Below, piece by piece: positions 2,516 to 30,072 of a DNA stretch of 64,000 bases. Source of the stretch: an uncultured Candidatus Saccharibacteria bacterium (lineage in GTDB: Bacteria; Patescibacteriota; Minisyncoccia; UBA6257; Colwellbacteraceae). The number at the start of each line of letters is the position of its first letter. Positions within the stretch are counted from its first letter, which is position 1. Where the stretch lies: the NCBI GenBank assembly GCA_964360065.1, contig CAYHTW010000001.1:86289-150288 (forward strand). Reading direction: 5' to 3'. Under the pieces are notes generated by a model. The model did no database searches, had not been told where the DNA came from, and was given only the letters and a program-made list of their open reading frames with translations. The translations under genes were made by a program, and so were the position numbers.

Positions 2516-3430
2516 ATGGAGAAGTTTAAAGTAATAGCCGTGGTAGGGCCGACCTCCAGCGGCAAAAGCGATCTGGCTGTGGAATTAGCCAGGCGTTTTA
2601 ATGGTGAAGTGATCTCGGCTGACTCCAGGCAGGTATATAAGGGTTTAAATATCGGCAGCGGCAAGATCACAATAAGCGAGATGAAAGGCGTGCCTCATTA
2701 TCTGCTAGATGTTTCTTCTCCGAAAGCTCCGCCGGCTGGCGGATTCACCGTATCTAAATACAAAGCATTGGCTGCGAAAGCCATCAATAAAATTATCAAA
2801 AAGCGTAAAGTACCGATTATCTGCGGCGGCACTGGGCTTTACGTTGATACTGTTCTTTATAACTGGCCGATACCAGAGGTTAAAGCTGATACGAAGCTGA
2901 GAGCCAAACTCCATTTGCAGAGCGCCGAGAAATTATTTAAGACATTGCAGAAACTGGATCCGAATAGAGCTAAAAATATTGATAGATTCAATAAGCTAAG
3001 ACTGGTGAGAGCCTTGGAAATAATAAAAACTACGGGCTCTCCTGTCCCCTACTTCCAACTCTTTGATTTAAATGCGTCGCCATACGAGATACTTAAAATA
3101 GGATTAAGGCCTAAAACTAAACTACTTAAAGAGAAAATAAGAAATCGGCTTCTGAAAATGATTAAGGCCGGAATGGTCAGAGAAGTTAGAAATTTAAAAA
3201 AGAATGGAGTGAATTCCAAAAGACTGGAAAGTTTCGGTTTGGAGTACAGATATGTTAATAGATATCTGGAGGGCCGGATTAGTAAAAACGAGATGGTGGA
3301 AGAACTAACAAGCCAGATAAATCATTATGCCAAGCGGCAAATGACCTGGTTCAAGAGAGATAAAAATACTATTTGGTTAGATGCTCCAGGAGCATCTTTT
3401 TCAAAAGTTCGGGATTTCCTCTCCCCTTAA
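2516..3430 (+). CDS. miaA: tRNA dimethylallyltransferase
   Basis: P-loop GPTSSGKS, ISADSRQVYKGLNIGSGK, GGTGLY motifs. Confidence 0.9.
   Translation: MEKFKVIAVVGPTSSGKSDLAVELARRFNGEVISADSRQVYKGLNIGSGKITISEMKGVPHYLLDVSSPKAPPAGGFTVSKYKALAAKAINKIIKKRKVPIICGGTGLYVDTVLYNWPIPEVKADTKLRAKLHLQSAEKLFKTLQKLDPNRAKNIDRFNKLRLVRALEIIKTTGSPVPYFQLFDLNASPYEILKIGLRPKTKLLKEKIRNRLLKMIKAGMVREVRNLKKNGVNSKRLESFGLEYRYVNRYLEGRISKNEMVEELTSQINHYAKRQMTWFKRDKNTIWLDAPGASFSKVRDFLSP
2727..2744. repeat. GC palindrome family copy CTCCGCCGGCTGGCGGAT inside miaA (encodes PPAGG in frame)
   Basis: CCGCCGGCTGGCGG core; the corresponding MiaA region looks about 4 aa longer than E. coli MiaA as I recall it. Confidence 0.8.
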
Positions 3431-21968: not shown

Positions 21969-21983
21969 CTTAGTTATATTATA

Positions 21984-22053
21984 CCAGGTAGTAGAAATTC
22001 GGCTAATTTATATTTGTCGCAAAAAGCGACCAGCCGAATTTTCACTACCTGGT
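21984..22053. promoter_or_regulatory. Long imperfect palindrome in divergent pilM/comFC promoter region (candidate operator)
   Basis: ACCAGGTAGTAGAAATTCGGCT ... AGCCGAATTTTCACTACCTGGT, with a small central hairpin GTCGC-AAAAA-GCGAC. Confidence 0.45.
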
Positions 22054-22064
22054 TATATCTTAAA

Positions 22065-22745
22065 ATGAGCATCTTGAGAAAAAGTTGGGCTTTCGCGCTG
22101 GACATCTTCTTCCCTCCCCTCTGCCTAAATTGCCAAAACTATCTGGAGGAAAACGAAAAACCAGACTTGGTCTGCCGTGAATGTTTAGAGAAGATTGAGT
22201 TGAATAAGATCCTATTTCATCCTAATAATATTTCTGGTATTAACTTTTCACTGGCTGCTGCCGCTTCTTACAATGATAAAACCGTTAAGGAGCTAATCCA
22301 CCATCTCAAATACAATGGGCTAACGGGAGCGACTAAACCTCTGGGAGAGTTTATCTTGAAGTACTTAACCGACATTAACCTAAATAGGGCAGACTGGATT
22401 TTAGTTCCTATCCCCCTTCATTCATCAAAATACAGAAAGCGAGGCTTTAATCAGGCGGAGCTCATAATTGAAGAAGTAAACAAGAAGTTGAGGTTACAGA
22501 TTATTACCAAGGCACTAAAAAGAGTTAGAGAAACCGACCCGCAGATAACTTTTTCCGGAACGAAAAGGGAAGAAAATGTTAAAAATTGTTTCGGCCCAGG
22601 AGAAGAAATAAACCTGGTAAGAGATAAAAAAGTTATTTTAGTTGATGATGTCTACACTTCCGGCGCCACAATGAAAGAAGCGATAAAAGTTTTACGTAGG
22701 AATGGAGTTAAAGAAGTTATGGGGTTGGTAGTGGCGAAGGCGTAA
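22065..22745 (+). CDS. comFC: Competence protein ComFC (phosphoribosyltransferase-domain protein)
   Basis: N-terminal Cys cluster (CLNC..CREC), C-terminal PRTase motif VILVDDVYTSGAT; start taken at MSILRK rather than ORF-track 22014. Confidence 0.8.
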   Translation: MSILRKSWAFALDIFFPPLCLNCQNYLEENEKPDLVCRECLEKIELNKILFHPNNISGINFSLAAAASYNDKTVKELIHHLKYNGLTGATKPLGEFILKYLTDINLNRADWILVPIPLHSSKYRKRGFNQAELIIEEVNKKLRLQIITKALKRVRETDPQITFSGTKREENVKNCFGPGEEINLVRDKKVILVDDVYTSGATMKEAIKVLRRNGVKEVMGLVVAKA

Positions 22746-22810
22746 AATAGAATTTTAAAAAAAGTGTACTTAATTTATGGAAGGATAATTTCTCCCTAAC
22801 GTAGATTAAT

Positions 22811-23476
22811 CTAACTTTTAGATTTTTCTGCTTTCAGTCTCTGCCTCAACTTTTTCTCCTTTTTGTAGACTTCAATAACTCCTTTAATCACTATCTGTTT
22901 TAATGGTTCATAGTCTCTATATTTATCTGCCCTACAAAGGGCTTCTAGGTATTTTTCTTTCATATCTCCCTCATATTTAACTTGGGATGGCTTGATGCCA
23001 TATCTCTGTAAGACAAGATTGGTCAGTAAACGAGCAGTTCTTCCATTACCTTGAGAAAAAGGATGTATTGAAACGAATTTATGTTGCGCCCAAACAGCTA
23101 ATTCTATAACATCTGACCACCATTTCTTATACTTAGTACTTTTAAAAGAGCTAAACCTAGGGCGAAGCTGTATTAAGGAACTTCTGTAATCGAAATCTCT
23201 CCAGAAGTTATAAATTTCTTCGTTCACTTTACTTCCCTCAGGAGGTTGAACGCACCTTAACTTTCGGACACCTTGGCCAGTTACTCTGAACTTACCAGCG
23301 ATTTGTGGTTCAGAATCCTTAAGGATCTCTGCGTGTATAGACCTTATGGTGTTAAGAGTTATTTTCTGCCGACTATCAGCTATACTTTTCACTAAGCCAA
23401 TAGCTCTCCAGAGACCAGCTACCTCTTTATCATCAAGTTCTCTTTTAGTTTTAGGACGAGAGAACTTCTTTGCCAT
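22811..23476 (-). CDS. Fic/Doc family protein (Fido domain)
   Basis: HPFSQGNGRTARLL matches Fic motif HxFx(D/E)GNGRxxR except Q at the acidic position. Confidence 0.85.
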   Translation of the reverse strand: MAKKFSRPKTKRELDDKEVAGLWRAIGLVKSIADSRQKITLNTIRSIHAEILKDSEPQIAGKFRVTGQGVRKLRCVQPPEGSKVNEEIYNFWRDFDYRSSLIQLRPRFSSFKSTKYKKWWSDVIELAVWAQHKFVSIHPFSQGNGRTARLLTNLVLQRYGIKPSQVKYEGDMKEKYLEALCRADKYRDYEPLKQIVIKGVIEVYKKEKKLRQRLKAEKSKS

Positions 23477-23690
23477 ACAAAGCTTTCTCTATCTGTTCAT
23501 TAGTTAGCTTGGTTCCTTCTATTTTAGAAGAATAGTAAAGATGCCCAATCGCAATATCTTGGTTAAATCTGGCCTGCTCTAAAGCAGATAGAGATGGTAA
23601 TTTACCAACCTCACACTCAAGATTAATGAGATGCTCTATCAAGGCCTCATTAGGGGAAACCTTATTTTTTGAAACCATTTTTTTCTTCAT
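23451..23690 (-). CDS. Small ORF carrying Fic inhibitory-helix motif (SSKIEG = [ST]xxxE[GN]); antitoxin-like, or frameshifted N-terminus of the Fic gene
   Basis: Overlaps Fic ORF start by 26 bp in a different frame; motif matches class I Fic antitoxins. Confidence 0.5.
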   Translation of the reverse strand: MKKKMVSKNKVSPNEALIEHLINLECEVGKLPSLSALEQARFNQDIAIGHLYYSSKIEGTKLTNEQIEKALYGKEVLSS

Positions 23691-23854
23691 TTTCGAGGTC
23701 TTTTAAAGAGTTCATAGAACAATCGCTTGTTCTTGCTACAGTAACTATAGCGACTTAGCTTGCTATTGTAAAGTCTAGTAAATAGGCAAAAATAAAGCTC
23801 CTAATCCTCCCGCTTTTTTGAGAACCGACTTTTTAGCTCATCCAAAAAGGTAGA

Positions 23855-23972
23855 AAAGTTATTCTGGTTGATGACGTCTATACCTCGGGCGCCACGATGA
23901 GAGAAGCGGTAAAAGTTTTAAGGAAGAATGGAGTTAAAGAAGTTATGGGGTTGGTAGTGGCGAAGGTTTGAG
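23855..23972 (+). pseudogene. Duplicated 3' fragment of comFC (encodes ..KVILVDDVYTSGATMREAVKVLRKNGVKEVMGLVVAKV*), in-frame stop upstream
   Basis: About 118 bp direct repeat of 22627-22745; last 45 bp identical, upstream part about 88% identical. Confidence 0.7.
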
Positions 23973-23977
23973 AAAGA

Positions 23978-24676
23978 TTACTCAATATTGTCTGACTTTT
24001 GAAGATTATGCTTCATACAAAGCAAACGAACATTTTTTGAAGACAAACTAGTCCCTCCTCTAGAAAATGGTAGGTCGTGGTCAAAGTGAAGATTCTTAGT
24101 CTCTCCACACTTAACACATTTGCCCTCATCTCTTTTCCAGACCTCTCTCTTAACTTCAGATGGGATTAACCGCGTGTACTCAATATGAACTTTTCTTGAG
24201 TCAAGATTTTCTTGCCGATCCGACAATCTTAAGATGAAACGAAATACATTTCGTTTACCATCGTGGACAATTTTGTAATCAATAAGATCAAAATATCCTT
24301 TCAAAGACCATACTCCAGGGAAAATTTTCTCATATACTTTAACTGGCTCTGCTGCATCAGTATTTTCTTTATAACTTTTAGCCGCCTTAATAAAATATCC
24401 ATTCTGAGTTAATTGTCCGCTAGGTAATTTATCTGGCTGGTCTTCTACTTTAGGGTTGTGATTATAAGCCCTCCTAGAAACATCGTGACCCTCGTACTCA
24501 ATAGTTAACCCATCTTCGTGAACTTTATCCTGATAGGGCGCGTTAGATCTCTGAGACATTAATATTACAGAGTAAGCCGGGTTCATTCTAAAGTTCATAC
24601 CACGCTGTAAAGTCTGAACATTCTCAGCGTCACACATTTCTCTATAACTTAATATATCGTTCTGAATTTTATTCAT
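23978..24676 (-). CDS. SRA-like domain fused to HNH endonuclease (candidate modification-dependent type IV restriction enzyme)
   Basis: N-terminal SRA-like motifs (AYSVILMSQ.., EDGLTIEYEGHD, QLTQNGYF, EPVKVY); C-terminal HNH (CVKCGETKNLHFDHDLPFSRGG..N..LLC..HN). Confidence 0.65.
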   Translation of the reverse strand: MNKIQNDILSYREMCDAENVQTLQRGMNFRMNPAYSVILMSQRSNAPYQDKVHEDGLTIEYEGHDVSRRAYNHNPKVEDQPDKLPSGQLTQNGYFIKAAKSYKENTDAAEPVKVYEKIFPGVWSLKGYFDLIDYKIVHDGKRNVFRFILRLSDRQENLDSRKVHIEYTRLIPSEVKREVWKRDEGKCVKCGETKNLHFDHDLPFSRGGTSLSSKNVRLLCMKHNLQKSDNIE

Positions 24677-24691
24677 AAGTTAAAGTATTTA

Positions 24692-27001
24692 TTATTCACT
24701 ACCAGATTCAAGAACTTCTTGGACGACACCTTGTACGCTGTCTCCCTCCTCGGGCGTGATTGGCATGTGACTTTTGTTTGTGCTCTTCGGCAATAGAATT
24801 CTACGCCCATCTTTTTTGTCATACATCTTTATCGTTACATTATCGCCAAGTAGAGCGACAACCCTATTACCTGTGTCTGCCTTTAGTTGCTGGCGGCATA
24901 AAACAAGATCACCATCATTTATACCTGCTAGATTCATTGAGTCACCTTCAGCCCTAAGTACGAAATACTCGAAACCTGGCTTGATTTTCGTTTTCTCTAC
25001 TGAAATGTATTCCTCAATGTTTTCCTGTCCTAATAAAGGATTGCCGCAAGGAGCAGACCCAACGAGTGGTATACGAAGCATATTCAAAGTAATGGGAGAA
25101 AAGACCGGTGCAACAAATTTTTGATAACTCTCCCCCGTTTCAATTCTACTTTTGAAAAACTTTTCTGTCTCTTTATCTACAAAATACACATAGCACCCCT
25201 TCATTCCACGAGTAAGAAGAACGCGATAAGTATTTTTAAGAAGATCAACAAGTTTTTCTCCAGAGCGCTTCACGACACTATCTGCGGATTTTTCTCGTAA
25301 CGCAATCCATGTCTGATTTTCAAAGTTGTAAACAAGATCCGGACCGATAATGACTCCGACATAGTCAAATTCAAATCCTTGAATCGTATAAATACTGCCT
25401 ATCTGATTCACTCCATTTGGATCATTCGGCCACAGCGAGGCCGGCGGAATCCCTGGGGCGAGTTTATAACCGTCTTTGCCTTCCCAGGGCATTTGAAAAT
25501 TGCCGATTTTAACGTCATTTACTAGCGTCCCGTCTGGATTAGGGTTGCTCCATGGCCAGCAAAAACCTGAGACAAGCCGCGCAGAACCTTGTTTCTCATC
25601 GCTTTTTTGTTTTATCTTTACATATAGTTCTTGAGGAGAATCTACAATTTGAAAATCAAACTCTTCTTTCTGGTCCCAAATGACGTTCGCTGTACGTTTG
25701 ATGCCGAGTGTATTATTTACCCAGTTCACAAATGCATCTGACCCGCTACACCGAAATTGCGCTTCTAACTCATAATTATAAACCTCACATCCCAACTTTA
25801 TAGCGGTATCTTTGATAAATTCCGCGGACCCCGTTTCATTAGGACGAACGTTTTGATTGTCATCAATAAAAAACACCCCAATTTTTGATGCCTTTATAAG
25901 CTCCTCAATTTGAGGGGTGTCTGATCGCATTTCTTTTTTTGTAAACCGGTTATTACTCGTCTCTCTTATTCGATGAGCTTCATCAGCAATAAGAACATCT
26001 AGAATATTCTTCTTAGAATTCATATAACTATTAAAATACTTAAATTGAACAGCTCCGCGAACACCAATCTTTTTCCTTAACGTCTCGGTAAATGCTTTCG
26101 ACCCCGTAGCATAGTTAGTGTCATATCCTGCACGCAGCAAATCCGCCATCAGATTAATAGCAATCACCGATTTTCCAGTGCCAGGACCACCACTAATAAT
26201 TACAACTGACTTTTTGTCTTTACCAAGCCCTTGTTTAACAAGGGAAATAACCTTGTCATATACAATAAGCTGTTCATCGAGAAGCACATACTCACTCCTA
26301 TTTTTTATCATCATACTCACATGGTCCATGAGTTTTTTACTCACTTTGTATTCCGTTTTCTCCACTCGTTCGAGTATTGGCAACCCACCTCCCGCTGAAA
26401 GTCTGTCTTTAAGGTATTCACTAAAAATATCTACACCATCCGCGCAAAAAATTGGATTATTTTTTATTTTTTCTGTAAATTTCATTGCTAGAAGCTCATC
26501 ATCCTTTGTAGGAGAATAATTATGAAGATAAGAAGCTGCGTCTAATTTGATAGAGCCTTCACCGTCAAATGCTGGGTGAAGATCTTGTAAATACATCTTA
26601 TATTGCCCGACTTGAACGGATGGATGAAGAACTTCTCTCTTCGCTCCTCCGACCCATGTAGCTACTTCATTCTCTCCATCTGATGCCTCACACTTCTCCC
26701 ATTGTTTAAGCTCAATAATAACTGCCCTATCACTTCCTGATTGATCTCTGCCAGTTATCATACAATCGAGACGCTTGGATGTTTGAGGAAGTTGATATTC
26801 AAGAATCACTCCGTGATCATCCAACCCCGAGTAATCGAACACTTGGGAGACAGCACGAAGAGAATTTCTCCACGACTGCACCTCGTTTGGGGAAGGATAA
26901 TACCTAAAGTACTGGAAGAAAGATTCTCTAAGTTTGTCTCCTATTTCGTTATGAACGGTGTCGTTTAAAAACTGAACGGATGAGCCCGAATAGAGTCTCA
27001 T
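24692..27001 (-). CDS. Three-domain protein: PD-(D/E)xK nuclease + DUF2075-type P-loop ATPase/helicase (Nhi-like) + C-terminal LexA-type S24 autopeptidase domain
   Basis: N-term LDCMITG..AVIIELKQW (D..ExK); Walker A GGPGTGKS, Walker B LIADEAHR; C-term IPLVGSAPCGNPLLG..FVLRAEGDSM..VTIKMY aligns to LexA CTD including cleavage-site region and Ser/Lys dyad. Confidence 0.75.
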   Translation of the reverse strand: MRLYSGSSVQFLNDTVHNEIGDKLRESFFQYFRYYPSPNEVQSWRNSLRAVSQVFDYSGLDDHGVILEYQLPQTSKRLDCMITGRDQSGSDRAVIIELKQWEKCEASDGENEVATWVGGAKREVLHPSVQVGQYKMYLQDLHPAFDGEGSIKLDAASYLHNYSPTKDDELLAMKFTEKIKNNPIFCADGVDIFSEYLKDRLSAGGGLPILERVEKTEYKVSKKLMDHVSMMIKNRSEYVLLDEQLIVYDKVISLVKQGLGKDKKSVVIISGGPGTGKSVIAINLMADLLRAGYDTNYATGSKAFTETLRKKIGVRGAVQFKYFNSYMNSKKNILDVLIADEAHRIRETSNNRFTKKEMRSDTPQIEELIKASKIGVFFIDDNQNVRPNETGSAEFIKDTAIKLGCEVYNYELEAQFRCSGSDAFVNWVNNTLGIKRTANVIWDQKEEFDFQIVDSPQELYVKIKQKSDEKQGSARLVSGFCWPWSNPNPDGTLVNDVKIGNFQMPWEGKDGYKLAPGIPPASLWPNDPNGVNQIGSIYTIQGFEFDYVGVIIGPDLVYNFENQTWIALREKSADSVVKRSGEKLVDLLKNTYRVLLTRGMKGCYVYFVDKETEKFFKSRIETGESYQKFVAPVFSPITLNMLRIPLVGSAPCGNPLLGQENIEEYISVEKTKIKPGFEYFVLRAEGDSMNLAGINDGDLVLCRQQLKADTGNRVVALLGDNVTIKMYDKKDGRRILLPKSTNKSHMPITPEEGDSVQGVVQEVLESGSE

Positions 27002-27003
27002 AA

Positions 27004-27351
27004 TTAGAGTTTATTATATTTCGTATGTTTCCCTTTGGCTTTTTCAACTGGATACTTATCTTCATTCTTTTTAATTTTTTTATCCAGCGCATCCAAGACA
27101 TTAATATCCAAGTCGTGACTCATAAGTAAAACCCAATACAAAACATCCGCTAGTTCTTCTCCAATTTCATCTTTATGGGTCCTAACATACTCTTCTATCT
27201 CCTCCTTACTCTTCCATTGGAAATGTTCCATTACTTCTCCAGCTTCGAGCACTAGTGACAACGCAACATCCTTAGGATTATGGAATTGTTTCCAATCCCG
27301 CGCATCTCGGAAAGCAATTATTCTTTTAAGTAGATCATTAATTTTTGGCAT
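27004..27351 (-). CDS. MazG-like nucleoside triphosphate pyrophosphohydrolase (small all-alpha NTP-PPase)
   Basis: EAGEVMEHFQWK ... EEIGEELADVLYWVL MazG signature; stop 3 bp before the start of the 769-aa gene (operon). Confidence 0.75.
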   Translation of the reverse strand: MPKINDLLKRIIAFRDARDWKQFHNPKDVALSLVLEAGEVMEHFQWKSKEEIEEYVRTHKDEIGEELADVLYWVLLMSHDLDINVLDALDKKIKKNEDKYPVEKAKGKHTKYNKL

Positions 27352-27438
27352 TTAATTGAACTAATTATGCCCCACTAAATAAGAATAGAGAAGGCTTAGT
27401 CCTAATATAGAGGCAGCTTTAGTGTTTTTGTATTGGAT

Positions 27439-27963
27439 CTAGCCAAGATCCGTGAATCCGAGAGCTTCAAAAAGCTCAATAATAACTCTTTCTCCGCCAA
27501 CTTGCGTATGTATATTTGCGATGCCAAAGTGATCACAGACATTCGGTATTTTATCTTTCAAACGATTAGCTTGTAGAGGAAGCTGATGTGGTTTTTCACA
27601 AGTCACAATAACTGACACTTCCAATAAAGCGTCCGCAATAAGATATGGATCTGCTTGTTCATATTCGCTATCAGGATCTATAATCTTTGGAAAAGCTATA
27701 ACAACTTCAGCAGCTTTACTTTCCACGATAGTACCGGAAACTTTTACAATTTTCTTTTTTATGCTTTTAATCCAATTATGAGTGAAATCGTCTTTTCTAC
27801 TGAGTTCATTGTAAACTTTATCAAGAACAAATAACTTTCCTTCCTCTGCCGCACGCTCAATCTTTTCCCATACTTTCGGGAAGAGGTGGATAGGATAAGT
27901 CTTGCTGATTTGAAGCATCGCACTCGTATCGAGAGAGTATTTTTTACTTTCTGTTTGGCTCAT
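27439..27963 (-). CDS. DUF4411-like PIN-fold protein (partner of ImmA/IrrE peptidase)
   Basis: 174 aa, N-terminal YSLDTS acidic start typical of PIN-like folds; 4-bp overlap with upstream HTH-peptidase gene. Confidence 0.5.
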   Translation of the reverse strand: MSQTESKKYSLDTSAMLQISKTYPIHLFPKVWEKIERAAEEGKLFVLDKVYNELSRKDDFTHNWIKSIKKKIVKVSGTIVESKAAEVVIAFPKIIDPDSEYEQADPYLIADALLEVSVIVTCEKPHQLPLQANRLKDKIPNVCDHFGIANIHTQVGGERVIIELFEALGFTDLG

Positions 27964-29198
27964 TGTTGATGAGATGGAGGCTTTATTTGCGCATAGTGCT
28001 GATTTGTTTTATCGATAACTTTCTCTAAACCAGCAAGTTTAACGTTAAGAAAAGTCACTAGCTCGTTGGTGGATATGACTCCTTTTGCGGCAGCGGCGAA
28101 AGCTTTCTGACTTAAGTCGTAACTACTACTTTTAACTATGTCTCGGTAGTAGTCGGGAACAAATTTTTGTCCTTTTTCTTCCGCTTTTTTCCTTTTTCTT
28201 AGTTCTTCTCGCTCATACCATTTCTGCAACTCTACCCTCTTCATTTCATACTCTCTTTCGGACATATAGCCATGATTAACAAATTTTCTATAAATCACTT
28301 CACCACTGACCTTATATAGGTAAACAAGATTAGTTACTAATCTATCATCTTTAGTAACAAGATATTTTTTGACATATTCATTACCCAAAAAATCTTCGTT
28401 CGGTACTAAGAAAGATCCAGCAAATTCATTTGCTTTTATTTCAATTAACTTATGAGCAAGCTTTTCTCCTTTAGAAAATACTAAAGAATCTATGTCTTTT
28501 TGTGACAAAAGTAAGTGATAAAACTCATGAAATAGAGTAAAAATCCTTCCTCGAATAGCATCCCCCGCATTTAGAACGATAACCGGAGGAAGGCTGTCTT
28601 CTCTTAAGCAAAATCCCCTAATCTCTTGTTTGGGAAATGGAAGCTGAAAAACAGGTATTCCGCTGCCTTCAATAATATCAATCCATCTATTAAAGGCGAA
28701 TCCTTCACTCTTCCATCCCTTTTGTTCTTCAATGCTTATATTAAGATATTTTCTAAACTCGCCTGCTAGTTCGGTTGGATTGGAATTAAAACTTATTGGT
28801 TTTAACTTAACAAACTCGCTCTTTGTGACTTCGAGAAGATAGGCATAAAACTTCCTATTCCTTTGAGCTTTCCTGATAGCTAATCTAACCTTTGGGGAGA
28901 GTGTCTCGACATTGACGCTATCGAGGGTTCTAAAATCCCTTGGGATAGGATTTATGGTTGGTGGGTTATTAAGAAAAAAGAAGCTTAACGTCCTCTTTTC
29001 TGTTTTAGCTAGCTTCTTAAGATCACTGATTTTTACTTCTGAATCTACGTCTTCCCATTTTCTAAGTTCTTCGATATCAATTTTGGATTTCTCACTCACG
29101 GCTTCGATAGAAAGACCAATAGACTCTCTGGCCCATTTCATGATGGCTTTCTTTACTACAATTTTATTTTTTGGTTTTTCTTTTTTGAGACTTATCAT
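27960..29198 (-). CDS. HTH (XRE-type) + ImmA/IrrE family zinc metallopeptidase
   Basis: N-terminal HTH, HExxH motif FTLFHEFYHLLL. Confidence 0.8.
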   Translation of the reverse strand: MISLKKEKPKNKIVVKKAIMKWARESIGLSIEAVSEKSKIDIEELRKWEDVDSEVKISDLKKLAKTEKRTLSFFFLNNPPTINPIPRDFRTLDSVNVETLSPKVRLAIRKAQRNRKFYAYLLEVTKSEFVKLKPISFNSNPTELAGEFRKYLNISIEEQKGWKSEGFAFNRWIDIIEGSGIPVFQLPFPKQEIRGFCLREDSLPPVIVLNAGDAIRGRIFTLFHEFYHLLLSQKDIDSLVFSKGEKLAHKLIEIKANEFAGSFLVPNEDFLGNEYVKKYLVTKDDRLVTNLVYLYKVSGEVIYRKFVNHGYMSEREYEMKRVELQKWYEREELRKRKKAEEKGQKFVPDYYRDIVKSSSYDLSQKAFAAAAKGVISTNELVTFLNVKLAGLEKVIDKTNQHYAQIKPPSHQQ

Positions 29199-29252
29199 AA
29201 ATTATTTCCAAAAAGAATTAATTAAAACTCTTAAATGCTCTCATTTTTGCAT

Positions 29253-29342
29253 TGGCGGAAGCGGGAGGATTTGAACCTCCGATACCCTTTCGGGTATACC
29301 ACATTTCGAGTGTGGCGCCTTCAACCACTCAGCCACGCTTCC
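29253..29342 (-). tRNA. tRNA-Ser (anticodon CGA), 90 nt, CCA encoded
   Basis: Manual fold: GGAAGCG acceptor, anticodon arm CCACA-CTCGAAA-TGTGG, long variable arm, T arm GGAGG-TTCAAAT-CCTCC, 3' CGCTTCC-G-CCA. Confidence 0.9.
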
Positions 29343-29371
29343 TTATTCTATTGTAATGGACTCCTTCAACC

Positions 29372-29407
29372 CCTGCCTGCCGGCAGGCAGGACTCAGCCA
29401 CGCTTCC
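29372..29407. repeat. 20-bp perfect palindrome CCTGCCTGCCGGCAGGCAGG followed by a 17-bp duplicate of the tRNA-Ser 5' end (ACTCAGCCACGCTTCCT)
   Basis: Second copy of the tRNA 5' acceptor/D-arm segment located about 50 bp upstream of the tRNA. Confidence 0.6.
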
Positions 29408-29476
29408 TTTTGGGTTTGTTAGAGCTTAGCCCGAAGGCTGGATAATCTCAAGATTAGCAATAAGGTGTCTGAATAA

Positions 29477-29515
29477 TTTCAGTATACTATAGTACTGATC
29501 AGCACTATAGTATAC
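29477..29515. repeat. Near-perfect 18-bp inverted repeat CAGTATACTATAGTACTG-atc-AGCACTATAGTATACTG
   Basis: Located between the dsbB stop and tRNA-Ser; possible terminator or protein binding site. Confidence 0.5.
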
Positions 29516-29526
29516 TGGTTGTAATT

Positions 29527-30072
29527 TTAAGAGTGAGAGCGATTATAGATCTTCTGAAGATATAGAAAACCGATAAGCAGAGCAAAGGCTGTCAGCGACA
29601 TCACGGGAATAGTTACATAACCGAATTCATTGATGTAATTTTTAAGACACAAAGAAATAGCTTCCGAGTTCGCATCACAGTCAAAGAGTGGTGTGCCGCC
29701 GTAGTAGATATAGTTGTGGTAAAAGGCAAAAGCTGCCCCAAGCCAAGCGAGTGGAATGGCATAATCAACGATTTTTCTATCCCCCTTCCACCAAGCTAAA
29801 CCTAGAAGCACTACTTGCGGATATATAAATATCCTTTGGAACCAGCAGAGATCGCAGGCGGCGTATCCTGCGTAATAAGAATAAAAAAGTGAAGTTACGG
29901 TCGCGCCGAGAGCAACAAAGAAAGCGAACTTGATTCCGTGCTTGCCGAAGAAATCTACGACTGCATCATTAGGCTGCTTGAGAAAAAAATAATAAATAAC
30001 TCCCGTAACAATGAAAACATCGCTAAGGACGATTAGAGAGGCGAAAAACTTATTAATTAGAATCAGAAACAT
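29527..30072 (-). CDS. dsbB: Disulfide bond formation protein B (DsbB/BdbC-like)
   Basis: CDLCWFQR motif, 4 TM helices. Confidence 0.75.
   Translation of the reverse strand: MFLILINKFFASLIVLSDVFIVTGVIYYFFLKQPNDAVVDFFGKHGIKFAFFVALGATVTSLFYSYYAGYAACDLCWFQRIFIYPQVVLLGLAWWKGDRKIVDYAIPLAWLGAAFAFYHNYIYYGGTPLFDCDANSEAISLCLKNYINEFGYVTIPVMSLTAFALLIGFLYLQKIYNRSHS

Follow-up and report, generated by a model that had tools for sequence, protein, structure and literature searches.

Introduction

Defence islands that lie beside tRNA and core genes consist of low-GC accessory genes set between core genes, and their toxin-antitoxin-like and restriction-like cargo varies among relatives. Several systems described from other bacteria resemble parts of the locus discussed here. 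Class I Fic toxin-antitoxin systems (VbhT/VbhA, FicT/FicA) combine the Fic core motif with a small overlapping upstream ORF carrying (S/T)xxxE(G/N), and the modification-dependent (type IV) restriction endonucleases TagI and ScoA3IV join an N-terminal SRA-like fold to a C-terminal HNH domain. Nhi (S. epidermidis SERP2475), described as a single-gene system, and "Nhi-like" proteins (Millman et al. 2022) have an architecture known from the literature, i.e., an N-terminal PD-(D/E)xK motif followed by a DUF2075 core with Walker A/B motifs. DUF2075 proteins have also been reported beside modification-dependent nucleases, and MazG is a predicted, unvalidated defence domain in the literature. In RosmerTA (RmrT/RmrA) and in HTH-DUF955 + DUF4411 modules, a gene for an HTH-Zn-peptidase (M78/COG2856) lies upstream of a small toxin-type gene and overlaps it; the DUF4411 family is classed as PIN-like, and its occurrence downstream of HTH-DUF955 fusions has been predicted to constitute a toxin-antitoxin system (Matelska et al. 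2017, PMC5499597).

Here, we describe an island of approximately 6.5 kb with minus-strand cargo (22746-29252), located between the comFC stop and tRNA-Ser(CGA) in a window of 64,000 nucleotides (the whole stretch of DNA analysed) from a groundwater Paceibacterota/Patescibacteria genome. Few defence systems are recognised in the tiny genomes of Patescibacteria. With a probability of roughly 0.8, this interval is a mosaic of defence and toxin-antitoxin genes gained by lateral transfer, and the place where the type IV pilus-comFC block ends is a hotspot of recombination. It is a defence hotspot of the ordinary kind with one interesting sub-module, the MazG-like/DUF2075 pair. However, it differs from known integration-hotspot defence islands in that integrase and transposase are absent, the host belongs to the CPR (Patescibacteria), the adjoining tRNA is inverted, and cassettes are bracketed by intact, diverged comFC 3' ends, a feature which points to homology-anchored insertion. 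A variable hotspot adjoining DNA-uptake genes (type IV pilus, comFC) may indicate where and how Patescibacteria keep and swap defence genes, the exchange apparently proceeding without an integrase, via homology on a conserved gene end.

Composition and gene content of the island

The left core flank is comFC (22014..22745, plus strand), which encodes a ComF-family phosphoribosyltransferase (Pfam Pribosyltran, DZR_2); homologues named ComF comprise 222-226 aa, and the actual start codon probably lies at 22065. The right core flank is dsbB (29527..30072, minus strand; Pfam DsbB). According to the ORF list, the interval from the comFC stop to tRNA-Ser(CGA) contains seven intact genes, all on the minus strand, and their products could be identified at the domain or fold level.

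The base composition of the island is foreign. Its GC content is 0.377 compared with 0.437 in the remainder, approximately 5.8 SD under other 6.5-kb stretches of the window and the minimum among 230 sliding windows (6.5 kb, whole window), and its tetranucleotide distance is 0.246 vs. 0.119 ± 0.016 (approximately 8 SD). PADLOC models match the Fic protein (SoFic), the helicase (PDC-S41, AbiO, Nhi), and the peptidase (RmrA), and no island gene received a housekeeping assignment. Pfam and NCBIfam profile searches detected no integrase or transposase domain among the seven island proteins; a mobility gene of its own is the mark of an active element, not of a hotspot.

The preliminary description had listed the elements of this interval, called them non-housekeeping, and taken the whole for a fixed defence hotspot free of integrase and transposase rather than an active element, proposing comparisons of synteny, GC and k-mer skew, and defence models. 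Every element was recovered at its coordinates (ORFs, Pfam, PADLOC, tRNA search), and all three comparisons, together with the domain searches, agree with a hotspot of variable content. As a refinement, the island is not one unit but a mosaic, of which at least three modules were acquired separately.

The MazG-like/DUF2075 operon

In the preferred reading, the island comprises four modules. One of these would be an operon in which a MazG-like NTP pyrophosphohydrolase is paired with an Nhi-like PD-(D/E)xK nuclease/DUF2075 helicase bearing a LexA-type, self-cleaving S24 tail. The 769-aa helicase protein (24692..27001, minus strand; Pfam, PADLOC, NCBIfam) matches SLFN-g3_helicase/DUF2075 (PF09848) at 1e-89 and Peptidase_S24 at 2e-20 (Pfam). 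It has an N-terminal PD-(D/E)xK motif (E68, D79, E97-x-K99) that is at least 97% conserved in 120 homologues and predicts, at the motif level, a nuclease; its Walker A motif (G271-S278, GGPGTGKS) and residues D340 and E341 (DEAH) are also conserved. Within the S24 tail, the site C652-G653, Ser688 (GDSM), and Lys725 (VTIKMY) align with A84-G85, S119, and K156 of LexA. Among 77 fused homologues, conservation of the Ser-Lys dyad reaches 90% or more, and an AAAG-type site is present, with the commonest residue at each position occurring in 60-90% of sequences. The tail also matches positions 79-198 of the LexA model (NCBIfam) and LexA C-terminal-domain structures (approximately 1e-13).

The resemblance to Nhi is partial. 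The PADLOC Nhi, AbiO, and PDC-S41 matches cover only part of the protein: the Nhi match (2e-12) spans residues 236-417, corresponding to model positions 179-329 of 470 and thus not full-length, and both the Nhi and AbiO models match the P-loop region only. In contrast to Nhi, the 769-aa protein bears the additional LexA-type autoprotease tail, and its gene is translationally coupled to that of the 115-aa MazG-like protein (27004..27351, minus strand; Pfam MazG-like 3e-17), which lies 2 nt upstream.

This pairing is tightly conserved. The operon is abundant in metagenomes and often S24-fused. Among 68 informative metagenome loci, 53 have the MazG-like gene directly before the DUF2075 gene, on its upstream side and typically with a gap of 2 nt, and the same adjacency occurs on a Priestia plasmid. 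None of the 80 metagenome loci has comFC nearby, so the block occupies other sites in other genomes. No description of the operon was found in the searchable literature, nor was it represented among the PADLOC models queried. The operon may represent a new variant of the Nhi type, one equipped with a proteolytic trigger, and is concrete enough to be tested.

Like Nhi, the helicase protein would degrade phage DNA or replication intermediates, S24 self-cleavage might act as a damage- or ssDNA-sensing switch, and MazG would remove non-canonical or modified dNTPs. A wider proposal is tentative: the MazG-like and PD-(D/E)xK-DUF2075 proteins could constitute a widespread, unnamed two-gene anti-phage module of bacteria, archaea, and plasmids, in which many members possess an S24 self-cleaving switch that responds to RecA-ssDNA or phage replication and controls the nuclease-helicase. 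Such a module might cooperate with adjacent modification-dependent nucleases (SRA-HNH, HNH_2, GmrSD, McrB-N-like), with MazG destroying the modified dNTPs by which phages escape restriction.

The nuclease and toxin-antitoxin-like modules

The gene for a 232-aa protein with a putative SRA fold and an HNH domain (23978..24676, minus strand) lies 15 nt downstream of the helicase gene, in an apparent operon with it. Its product is a predicted modification-dependent (type IV-like) endonuclease, which would cut DNA with modified cytosines. The SRA label, a guess of the preliminary description, now receives some support from the putative N-terminal SRA-like (PUA-superfamily) fold of a medium-confidence predicted model (pLDDT 66); no sequence-level match to Pfam SAD_SRA or TagI was obtained. 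The HNH ββα-Me motif matches Pfam HNH and HNH_5 at E ~0.003, under the gathering cutoff, and all 31 homologues share C187, C190, H197, D199, H200, N215, C220, and N224. In the predicted order of domains and in size, the protein is similar to TagI and ScoA3IV, from which it differs in lacking the sequence-level match to TagI and in the association of its gene with a helicase gene.

The Fic-domain protein (221 aa; 22811..23476, minus strand) is a predicted toxin/effector (Pfam Fic 8e-14; PADLOC SoFic 8e-19, PDC-S04), with an additional NCBIfam match, under the model cutoff, to mobile mystery protein B. Its motif is H138-PFSQGNGRTAR; as read from the translation, HPFSQGNGRTAR has Q at position 5, the canonical D/E position of the class I Fic motif HxFx(D/E)GNGRxxR. 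A 79-aa ORF (23451..23690, minus strand) shares 26 nt with the start of the Fic gene and encodes a separate upstream protein, a predicted antitoxin whose S54-SKI-E58-G59 is, likewise from the translation, of the Fic-inhibitory type; this SxxxEG motif lends support to the earlier guess of an antitoxin-like ORF. The two would thus form a class-I-like Fic toxin with a small inhibitor protein. SoFic, in contrast, is one longer protein, the N-terminal region of which seems to be supplied here by the separate ORF.

At the other end of the island, the gene for a 412-aa HTH + M78 (ImmA/IrrE-type) peptidase (27960..29198, minus strand; Pfam Peptidase_M78 6.5e-15, HTH_3), a predicted antitoxin/regulator, lies just upstream of, and overlaps by 4 nt, the gene for a DUF4411 protein of the PIN-like nuclease family (27439..27963, minus strand; Pfam DUF4411 8e-27), a predicted toxin. 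The peptidase carries an HEFYH motif and matches PADLOC RmrA at 3e-20 over residues 19-335 as well as, under the cutoff, the NCBIfam spr1629 repressor/antitoxin model. The architecture would be RosmerTA-like, although its partner, the PIN-like DUF4411 protein, had no match at E ≤ 0.01 to any PADLOC model, RmrT included. Both pairs (Fic/79-aa and HTH-M78/DUF4411) might function in abortive infection or in stabilisation.

The same site in relatives and the comFC 3' repeats

The content of the site is variable among relatives with 78-83% identical ComFC (L012, L013, L014, and L015). In L012, comFC, tRNA-Ser(cga), and dsbB are adjacent and the site is cargo-free; L014 has a type I R-M system immediately 3' of the comFC stop; L013 carries small, unrelated HEPN-like and HTH ORFs beyond the tRNA; and L015 has only an SRA-HNH remnant, helicase-S24, and MazG. 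Right-hand neighbours also differ in more distant relatives with identical ComFC. In junction alignments, every cargo starts to diverge no more than a few nucleotides from the comFC stop. A single aquifer population is the source of every contig that carries the exact window proteins, and all of these contigs show the same island, so within-population variation is hinted at only by contig breaks, which fall exactly at the tRNA 3' end in two independent short-read assemblies.

The 3' end of comFC is present twice on the plus strand, as a 133-nt direct repeat of approximately 85-86% identity whose copies flank the Fic module. Copy 1 (22619..22751; repeat and translation) is the functional 3' end, and copy 2 (23845..23977) is a displaced one whose stop lies at 23969-23971; as in L015, this copy directly adjoins the SRA-HNH gene. 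The preliminary description correctly recognised a copy of the comFC 3' end but called it degenerate, whereas both repeats are intact reading frames, copy 2 reading 40 codons and a stop with six conservative replacements. The identity between the repeats (86%) is of the same order as that to comFC of other species (81-87%); the second is an intact, orthologue-like copy marking a recombination junction. Being intact yet diverged, the duplicates suggest that the Fic module came from another lineage. Positions 23845-25221 of the window correspond to 1431-2807 of L015 at 90%, and in L015 the helicase cassette is bracketed by 50-nt comFC 3' repeats of 90% identity.

It appears that cargo would enter at two points, i.e., exactly at the comFC stop codon and at the 3' end of the adjoining tRNA-Ser(CGA), of which L012 has an attR-like second copy. 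Gain and loss of cassettes might proceed through RecA-type homologous recombination, with the conserved 3' end of comFC as the anchor. Such events would amount to Campbell-type insertion of DNA imported from related strains and would require no integrase. Since an integrase is absent, comFC 3'-anchored recombination is the likeliest route, as we infer from the repeats; neither a circular intermediate nor a donor was observed, the tRNA-like remnant described below is only 20 nt long, and the order of events is not unique.

Alternative explanations

One alternative is that the island, which abuts the tRNA 3' end, is what remains of a single integrative element (a prophage or ICE), inserted at the 3' end of tRNA-Ser, from which the integrase and structural genes have since disappeared. 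A 20-mer like the tRNA-Ser 3' end is present at 23796..23815 (plus strand; 17/20 match, exact 13-mer AATCCTCCCGCTT), in the orientation of the relatives' tRNA and with 0.18 chance matches expected in the whole window. It is a possible att remnant, comparable to a second, attR-like copy of the tRNA 3' end in L012. In prophages and ICEs, HTH-ImmA/IrrE peptidases and S24 domains are typical regulatory components, and the resemblance of Fic to mobile mystery protein B points the same way. However, Pfam and NCBIfam searches found no integrase, relaxase, capsid, or tail domains in the island proteins, and close relatives of the helicase or peptidase were not found on viral contigs. The modules are, moreover, separable: L015 has only the helicase and MazG between its comFC repeats, L021 carries the MazG-to-Fic stretch at another chromosomal site, and two cassettes are bracketed by comFC 3' repeats rather than tRNA repeats. 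A decayed single element is thus improbable. Somewhat less improbable, but still unlikely, is a reading in which the Fic gene and its 79-aa neighbour derive from a single class-II Fic gene, disrupted by a frameshift, and do not form a toxin-antitoxin pair. The ORFs overlap in different frames, the smaller has weak PADLOC matches solely to the N-terminus of PDC-S04 Fic proteins, and the larger matches SoFic from model position 86 on. Against a pseudogene, L021 preserves the overlapping two-ORF layout with proteins just 42-48% identical, and a promoter-like site upstream of the 79-aa ORF gives a weak further indication.

The least probable explanation, and a very improbable one, is that the island genes serve housekeeping or repair rather than defence, MazG being a house-cleaning NTPase, DUF2075-S24 an SOS-linked repair helicase, and the low GC incidental. 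MazG family members do clean nucleotide pools, and the LexA/UmuD-like S24 tail provides a link to the DNA-damage response. However, the island genes are missing from the nearest empty-site relative, L012, their base composition is a strong outlier, and the distribution over phyla and plasmids is patchy, with 55-66% identity between distant phyla and with R-M systems, HNH nucleases, and GmrSD as neighbours. A mosaic defence and toxin-antitoxin island at a recombination hotspot remains the preferred reading.

Orientation of tRNA-Ser(CGA)

One feature of the right boundary was overlooked in the preliminary description. The tRNA-Ser(CGA) gene (29253..29342, minus strand), which in L012 adjoins dsbB, is inverted relative to three relatives (L012, L013, and L015): the tRNA and spacer of the window align, reversed, with their comFC-stop/spacer/tRNA segment. 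The right end of the inverted segment is marked by a partly duplicated tRNA 5' end and a spacer (29343..29470, minus strand; repeat search and alignment), the latter homologous to the relatives' comFC-stop/tRNA spacer (…CTTGAGATTATCC…).

Gene Content and Composition of the Island

Judged from its sequence, the interval between the comFC stop codon (22745) and the tRNA-Ser(CGA) gene (29253–29342, minus strand), which forms the right border of the island, is a mosaic assembled around repeats of the comFC 3′ end. It contains seven intact open reading frames (ORFs), all on the minus strand, and the domain assignments agree with the seven accessory genes listed in the preliminary description. As a hotspot of predicted defence and toxin-antitoxin functions, the island is an ordinary kind of feature, here in an under-studied phylum. 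What goes beyond the preliminary description is the mosaic structure around the comFC 3′ repeats, the inversion of the tRNA gene, and a conserved MazG-DUF2075(-S24) operon.

The compositional skew is pronounced. GC content is 37.7% in the island compared with 43.7% in the remainder of the window, i.e., approx. 5.8 SD below other 6.5-kb stretches and the lowest among 230 sliding windows, and the tetranucleotide distance is 0.246 vs. 0.119 ± 0.016. By these outlier values, the island is of foreign origin. One might regard it as a whole as a single decayed prophage or ICE, a reading that we rank low; Pfam and NCBIfam searches found no integrase or transposase domain in any of the seven proteins, as expected from the first inspection, and no relatives of the helicase or the peptidase were found in viral contigs by a scan sensitive to close relatives only. 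A second rival reading concerns the two ORFs nearest to comFC, namely, a Fic protein of 221 amino acids (22811–23476; Pfam 8e-14, PADLOC SoFic 8e-19) and a 79-aa partner (23451–23690) that matches no family and carries the motif S54-x3-E58-G59. The S-x3-E-G motif is of the type that inhibits Fic enzymes. That the pair is instead a Fic pseudogene split by a frameshift is also ranked low; a pair 42–48% identical to it is present at L021, a metagenome helicase locus at another chromosomal site. The only plausible promoter in a promoter/terminator scan, which gave fewer sites in the real than in shuffled sequence, lies upstream of the 79-aa ORF, and an Rfam search of the whole window returned tRNAs only.

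The next gene encodes a 232-aa protein (23978–24676) whose HNH nuclease domain is weak by sequence and in which Pfam, NCBIfam and a phmmer search of the PDB found no SRA domain. An SRA domain was indicated solely by fold comparison of a medium-confidence AlphaFold model built from 31 homologues (pLDDT 66), and the SRA-HNH label given from inspection is therefore tentatively backed at the fold level. It is followed by a 769-aa fusion of a nuclease, a DUF2075 helicase and an S24 peptidase (24692–27001; DUF2075/SLFN-g3 1e-89, Pfam Peptidase_S24 2e-20), a 115-aa MazG-like hydrolase (27004–27351; Pfam 3e-17), a 174-aa DUF4411 protein (27439–27963; Pfam 8e-27) and a 412-aa HTH-M78 peptidase (27960–29198), assigned by Pfam and matched, like the Fic protein by its own model, by a PADLOC model (RmrA, 3e-20). 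Members of the PIN-like DUF4411 family are the predicted toxins encoded downstream of HTH-DUF955 fusions (PMC5499597). This layout corresponds to the RosmerTA configuration.

The MazG-Helicase Operon

Homologues of the helicase are very numerous and conserved to an unusual degree: there are more than 7,900 matches, with 55–66% identity in Omnitrophota, Bacillus and archaea, and the family is found on plasmids too. Both Walker motifs (A and B) are nearly invariant, as are E68, D79 and E97-x-K99 in the N-terminal part. Residues 644–766 are matched by LexA models and structures, and the S24 tail is present in 77 of the best 120 homologues; in these 77, conservation of the Ser and of the Lys is 90% or higher, and the tail has an AAAG-type cleavage site (C652-G653, Ser688 and Lys725 in the window protein).

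Of 80 metagenome helicase loci, 68 had adequate upstream sequence, and in 53 of these a MazG-like gene lies directly upstream on the same strand, typically with a 2-nt gap or an overlap. Since comFC is nearby in none of the 80, the MazG-helicase block occupies different sites in other genomes. For example, at L021, where it adjoins an aminopeptidase gene, the order MazG, helicase-S24, SRA-HNH, small ORF and Fic is that of the window. On a Priestia aryabhattai plasmid (NZ_CP083270, 1542–4860), genes for DUF3578, which we take to be a McrB-N-like 5mC-reader domain, a nucleotide pyrophosphohydrolase and DUF2075 are consecutive and adjoined by a type I R-M system and a restriction endonuclease. 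Other neighbours are mixed, e.g., HNH_2 (12 ORFs), further HNH types, GmrSD and second DUF2075 genes. A second, upstream DUF2075 gene was seen at six metagenome loci, and a Hymenobacter canadensis plasmid (NZ_CP114769, 1904–5890) carries a tandem DUF2075 pair without a MazG gene, next to a DNA methyltransferase and a DUF4747 gene.

Nhi, an anti-phage enzyme that combines PD-(D/E)xK and DUF2075 in one gene, is thought to destroy phage replication intermediates; its N-terminal fragment is active, whereas the full-length protein is almost inactive (10.1101/776245). "Nhi-like" proteins have a common architecture with Nhi but lack sequence identity (10.1101/2022.05.11.491447). Modification-dependent nucleases with adjoining DUF2075 genes have been noted (PMC6765204), and MazG is a predicted, unvalidated defence domain (PMC13092281). 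DUF2075 and MazG together are not mentioned in the searchable literature, where a search for Nhi-like proteins with MazG gave noise only; the titles and abstracts of ten DUF2075 papers do not mention an S24 fusion. The MazG-DUF2075(-S24) operon is a tightly conserved unit of predicted function and appears to be undescribed.

The Island Site in Related Genomes

Exact matches to the ComFC and DsbB proteins came solely from one population in metagenomes of the Hainich aquifer (well H52), which places the window there, and each of these contigs carries the same island. A PilM genome scan found one species-level relative, the nearest reference, a Candidatus Paceibacterota MAG whose contig stops between pilM and comFC, before the island site. 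The site comparison comprises four informative contigs (L012–L015), found through ComFC homologues at 78–83% identity. In L012, the site is empty: comFC is followed after 37 nt by tRNA-Ser(cga) on the same strand and then by dsbB. In L013, small HEPN-like and HTH ORFs follow comFC and tRNA-Ser; in L014, a type I R-M system begins immediately at the comFC stop; and in L015, comFC is followed by a degraded SRA-HNH gene, a 758-aa helicase-S24 gene, MazG and tRNA-Ser. The pilus-comFC block is also retained in more distant relatives, but with varying right-hand neighbours, even between contigs with identical ComFC. Because cargo and right-hand neighbours differ across relatives, the comFC-to-tRNA interval is a variable hotspot, as the preliminary description proposed. 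The L015 SRA-HNH DNA (1990–2262) is approx. 90% identical to the window gene, yet the ORF called has only 90 aa, through either pseudogenization or assembly errors. The start of comFC in the window is probably 22065 rather than 22014, because homologues measure 222–226 aa; a 22-nt inverted repeat (91%) lies at 21983–22053, in the divergent pilM-comFC intergenic region.

In every genome, no more than a few nucleotides separate the comFC stop from the start of the cargo. The duplication of the comFC 3′ end is confirmed (22619–22751 vs. 23845–23977, 133 nt, 85% identity), but the second copy is not degenerate as first described: 40 codons and the stop are intact, with six conservative replacements. 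Window 23845–25221 matches L015 1431–2807 at 90%, and in both the second copy is joined to the SRA-HNH gene, which argues that the Fic module (approx. 22752–23844) is a later insertion into an L015-like layout. The two copies are as far apart (86%) as each is from the comFC ends of other species (81–87%), so that one of them probably arrived with foreign DNA; in a resident-vs.-incoming comparison, the two stand at roughly the same distance from the relatives. The L015 helicase cassette is likewise flanked by 50-nt comFC 3′ repeats (90% identity); around the L021 block, just one weak 30-nt AT-rich repeat pair was found. Given that no recombinase is present and that intact, diverged comFC-end duplicates flank the cassettes, the simplest route would be homologous (Campbell-type) recombination in which the comFC 3′ end anchors the incoming DNA, a route that we infer from repeats seen at the sequence level.

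The tRNA End and the Inversion

Four observations point to the tRNA-Ser 3′ end as a second entry point for cargo. L012 has a degenerate second tRNA-Ser 3′ end (TTCAATTCCCTCCCGCTTCCGCA, 3270–3300) approx. 190 nt downstream of the tRNA, which looks like an attR from a lost element; the L013 cargo is located at the tRNA 3′ end; a 20-nt remnant resembling this end lies at window 23796–23815; and contigs of two independent short-read assemblies from the same aquifer end exactly there. Such contig ends suggest a branch in the assembly graph and, hence, cargo variation in the population.

The tRNA strand in the window is opposite to that in L012, L013 and L015. When reversed, 29470–29253 aligns to the "comFC stop - spacer - tRNA" of the relatives from CTTGAGA onward. 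The inverted segment may comprise the spacer and tRNA alone or additionally the peptidase/DUF4411 pair, with putative breakpoints near 27370 and 29470. The tRNA-Ser 5′ end is partly duplicated at 29343–29409 (minus strand; exact 18-mer at 29327–29344 and 29392–29409), with a 47-nt insert between tRNA and duplicate that includes the palindrome CCTGCCTGCCGGCAGGCAGG; L013 has a comparable duplicate, in which the hairpin insert differs. A near-perfect palindrome (29480–29517; 19-nt arms, 95% complementary, no spacer), possibly a terminator or a site of recombination, is located where the inverted segment ends on the right, between that end and the dsbB stop.
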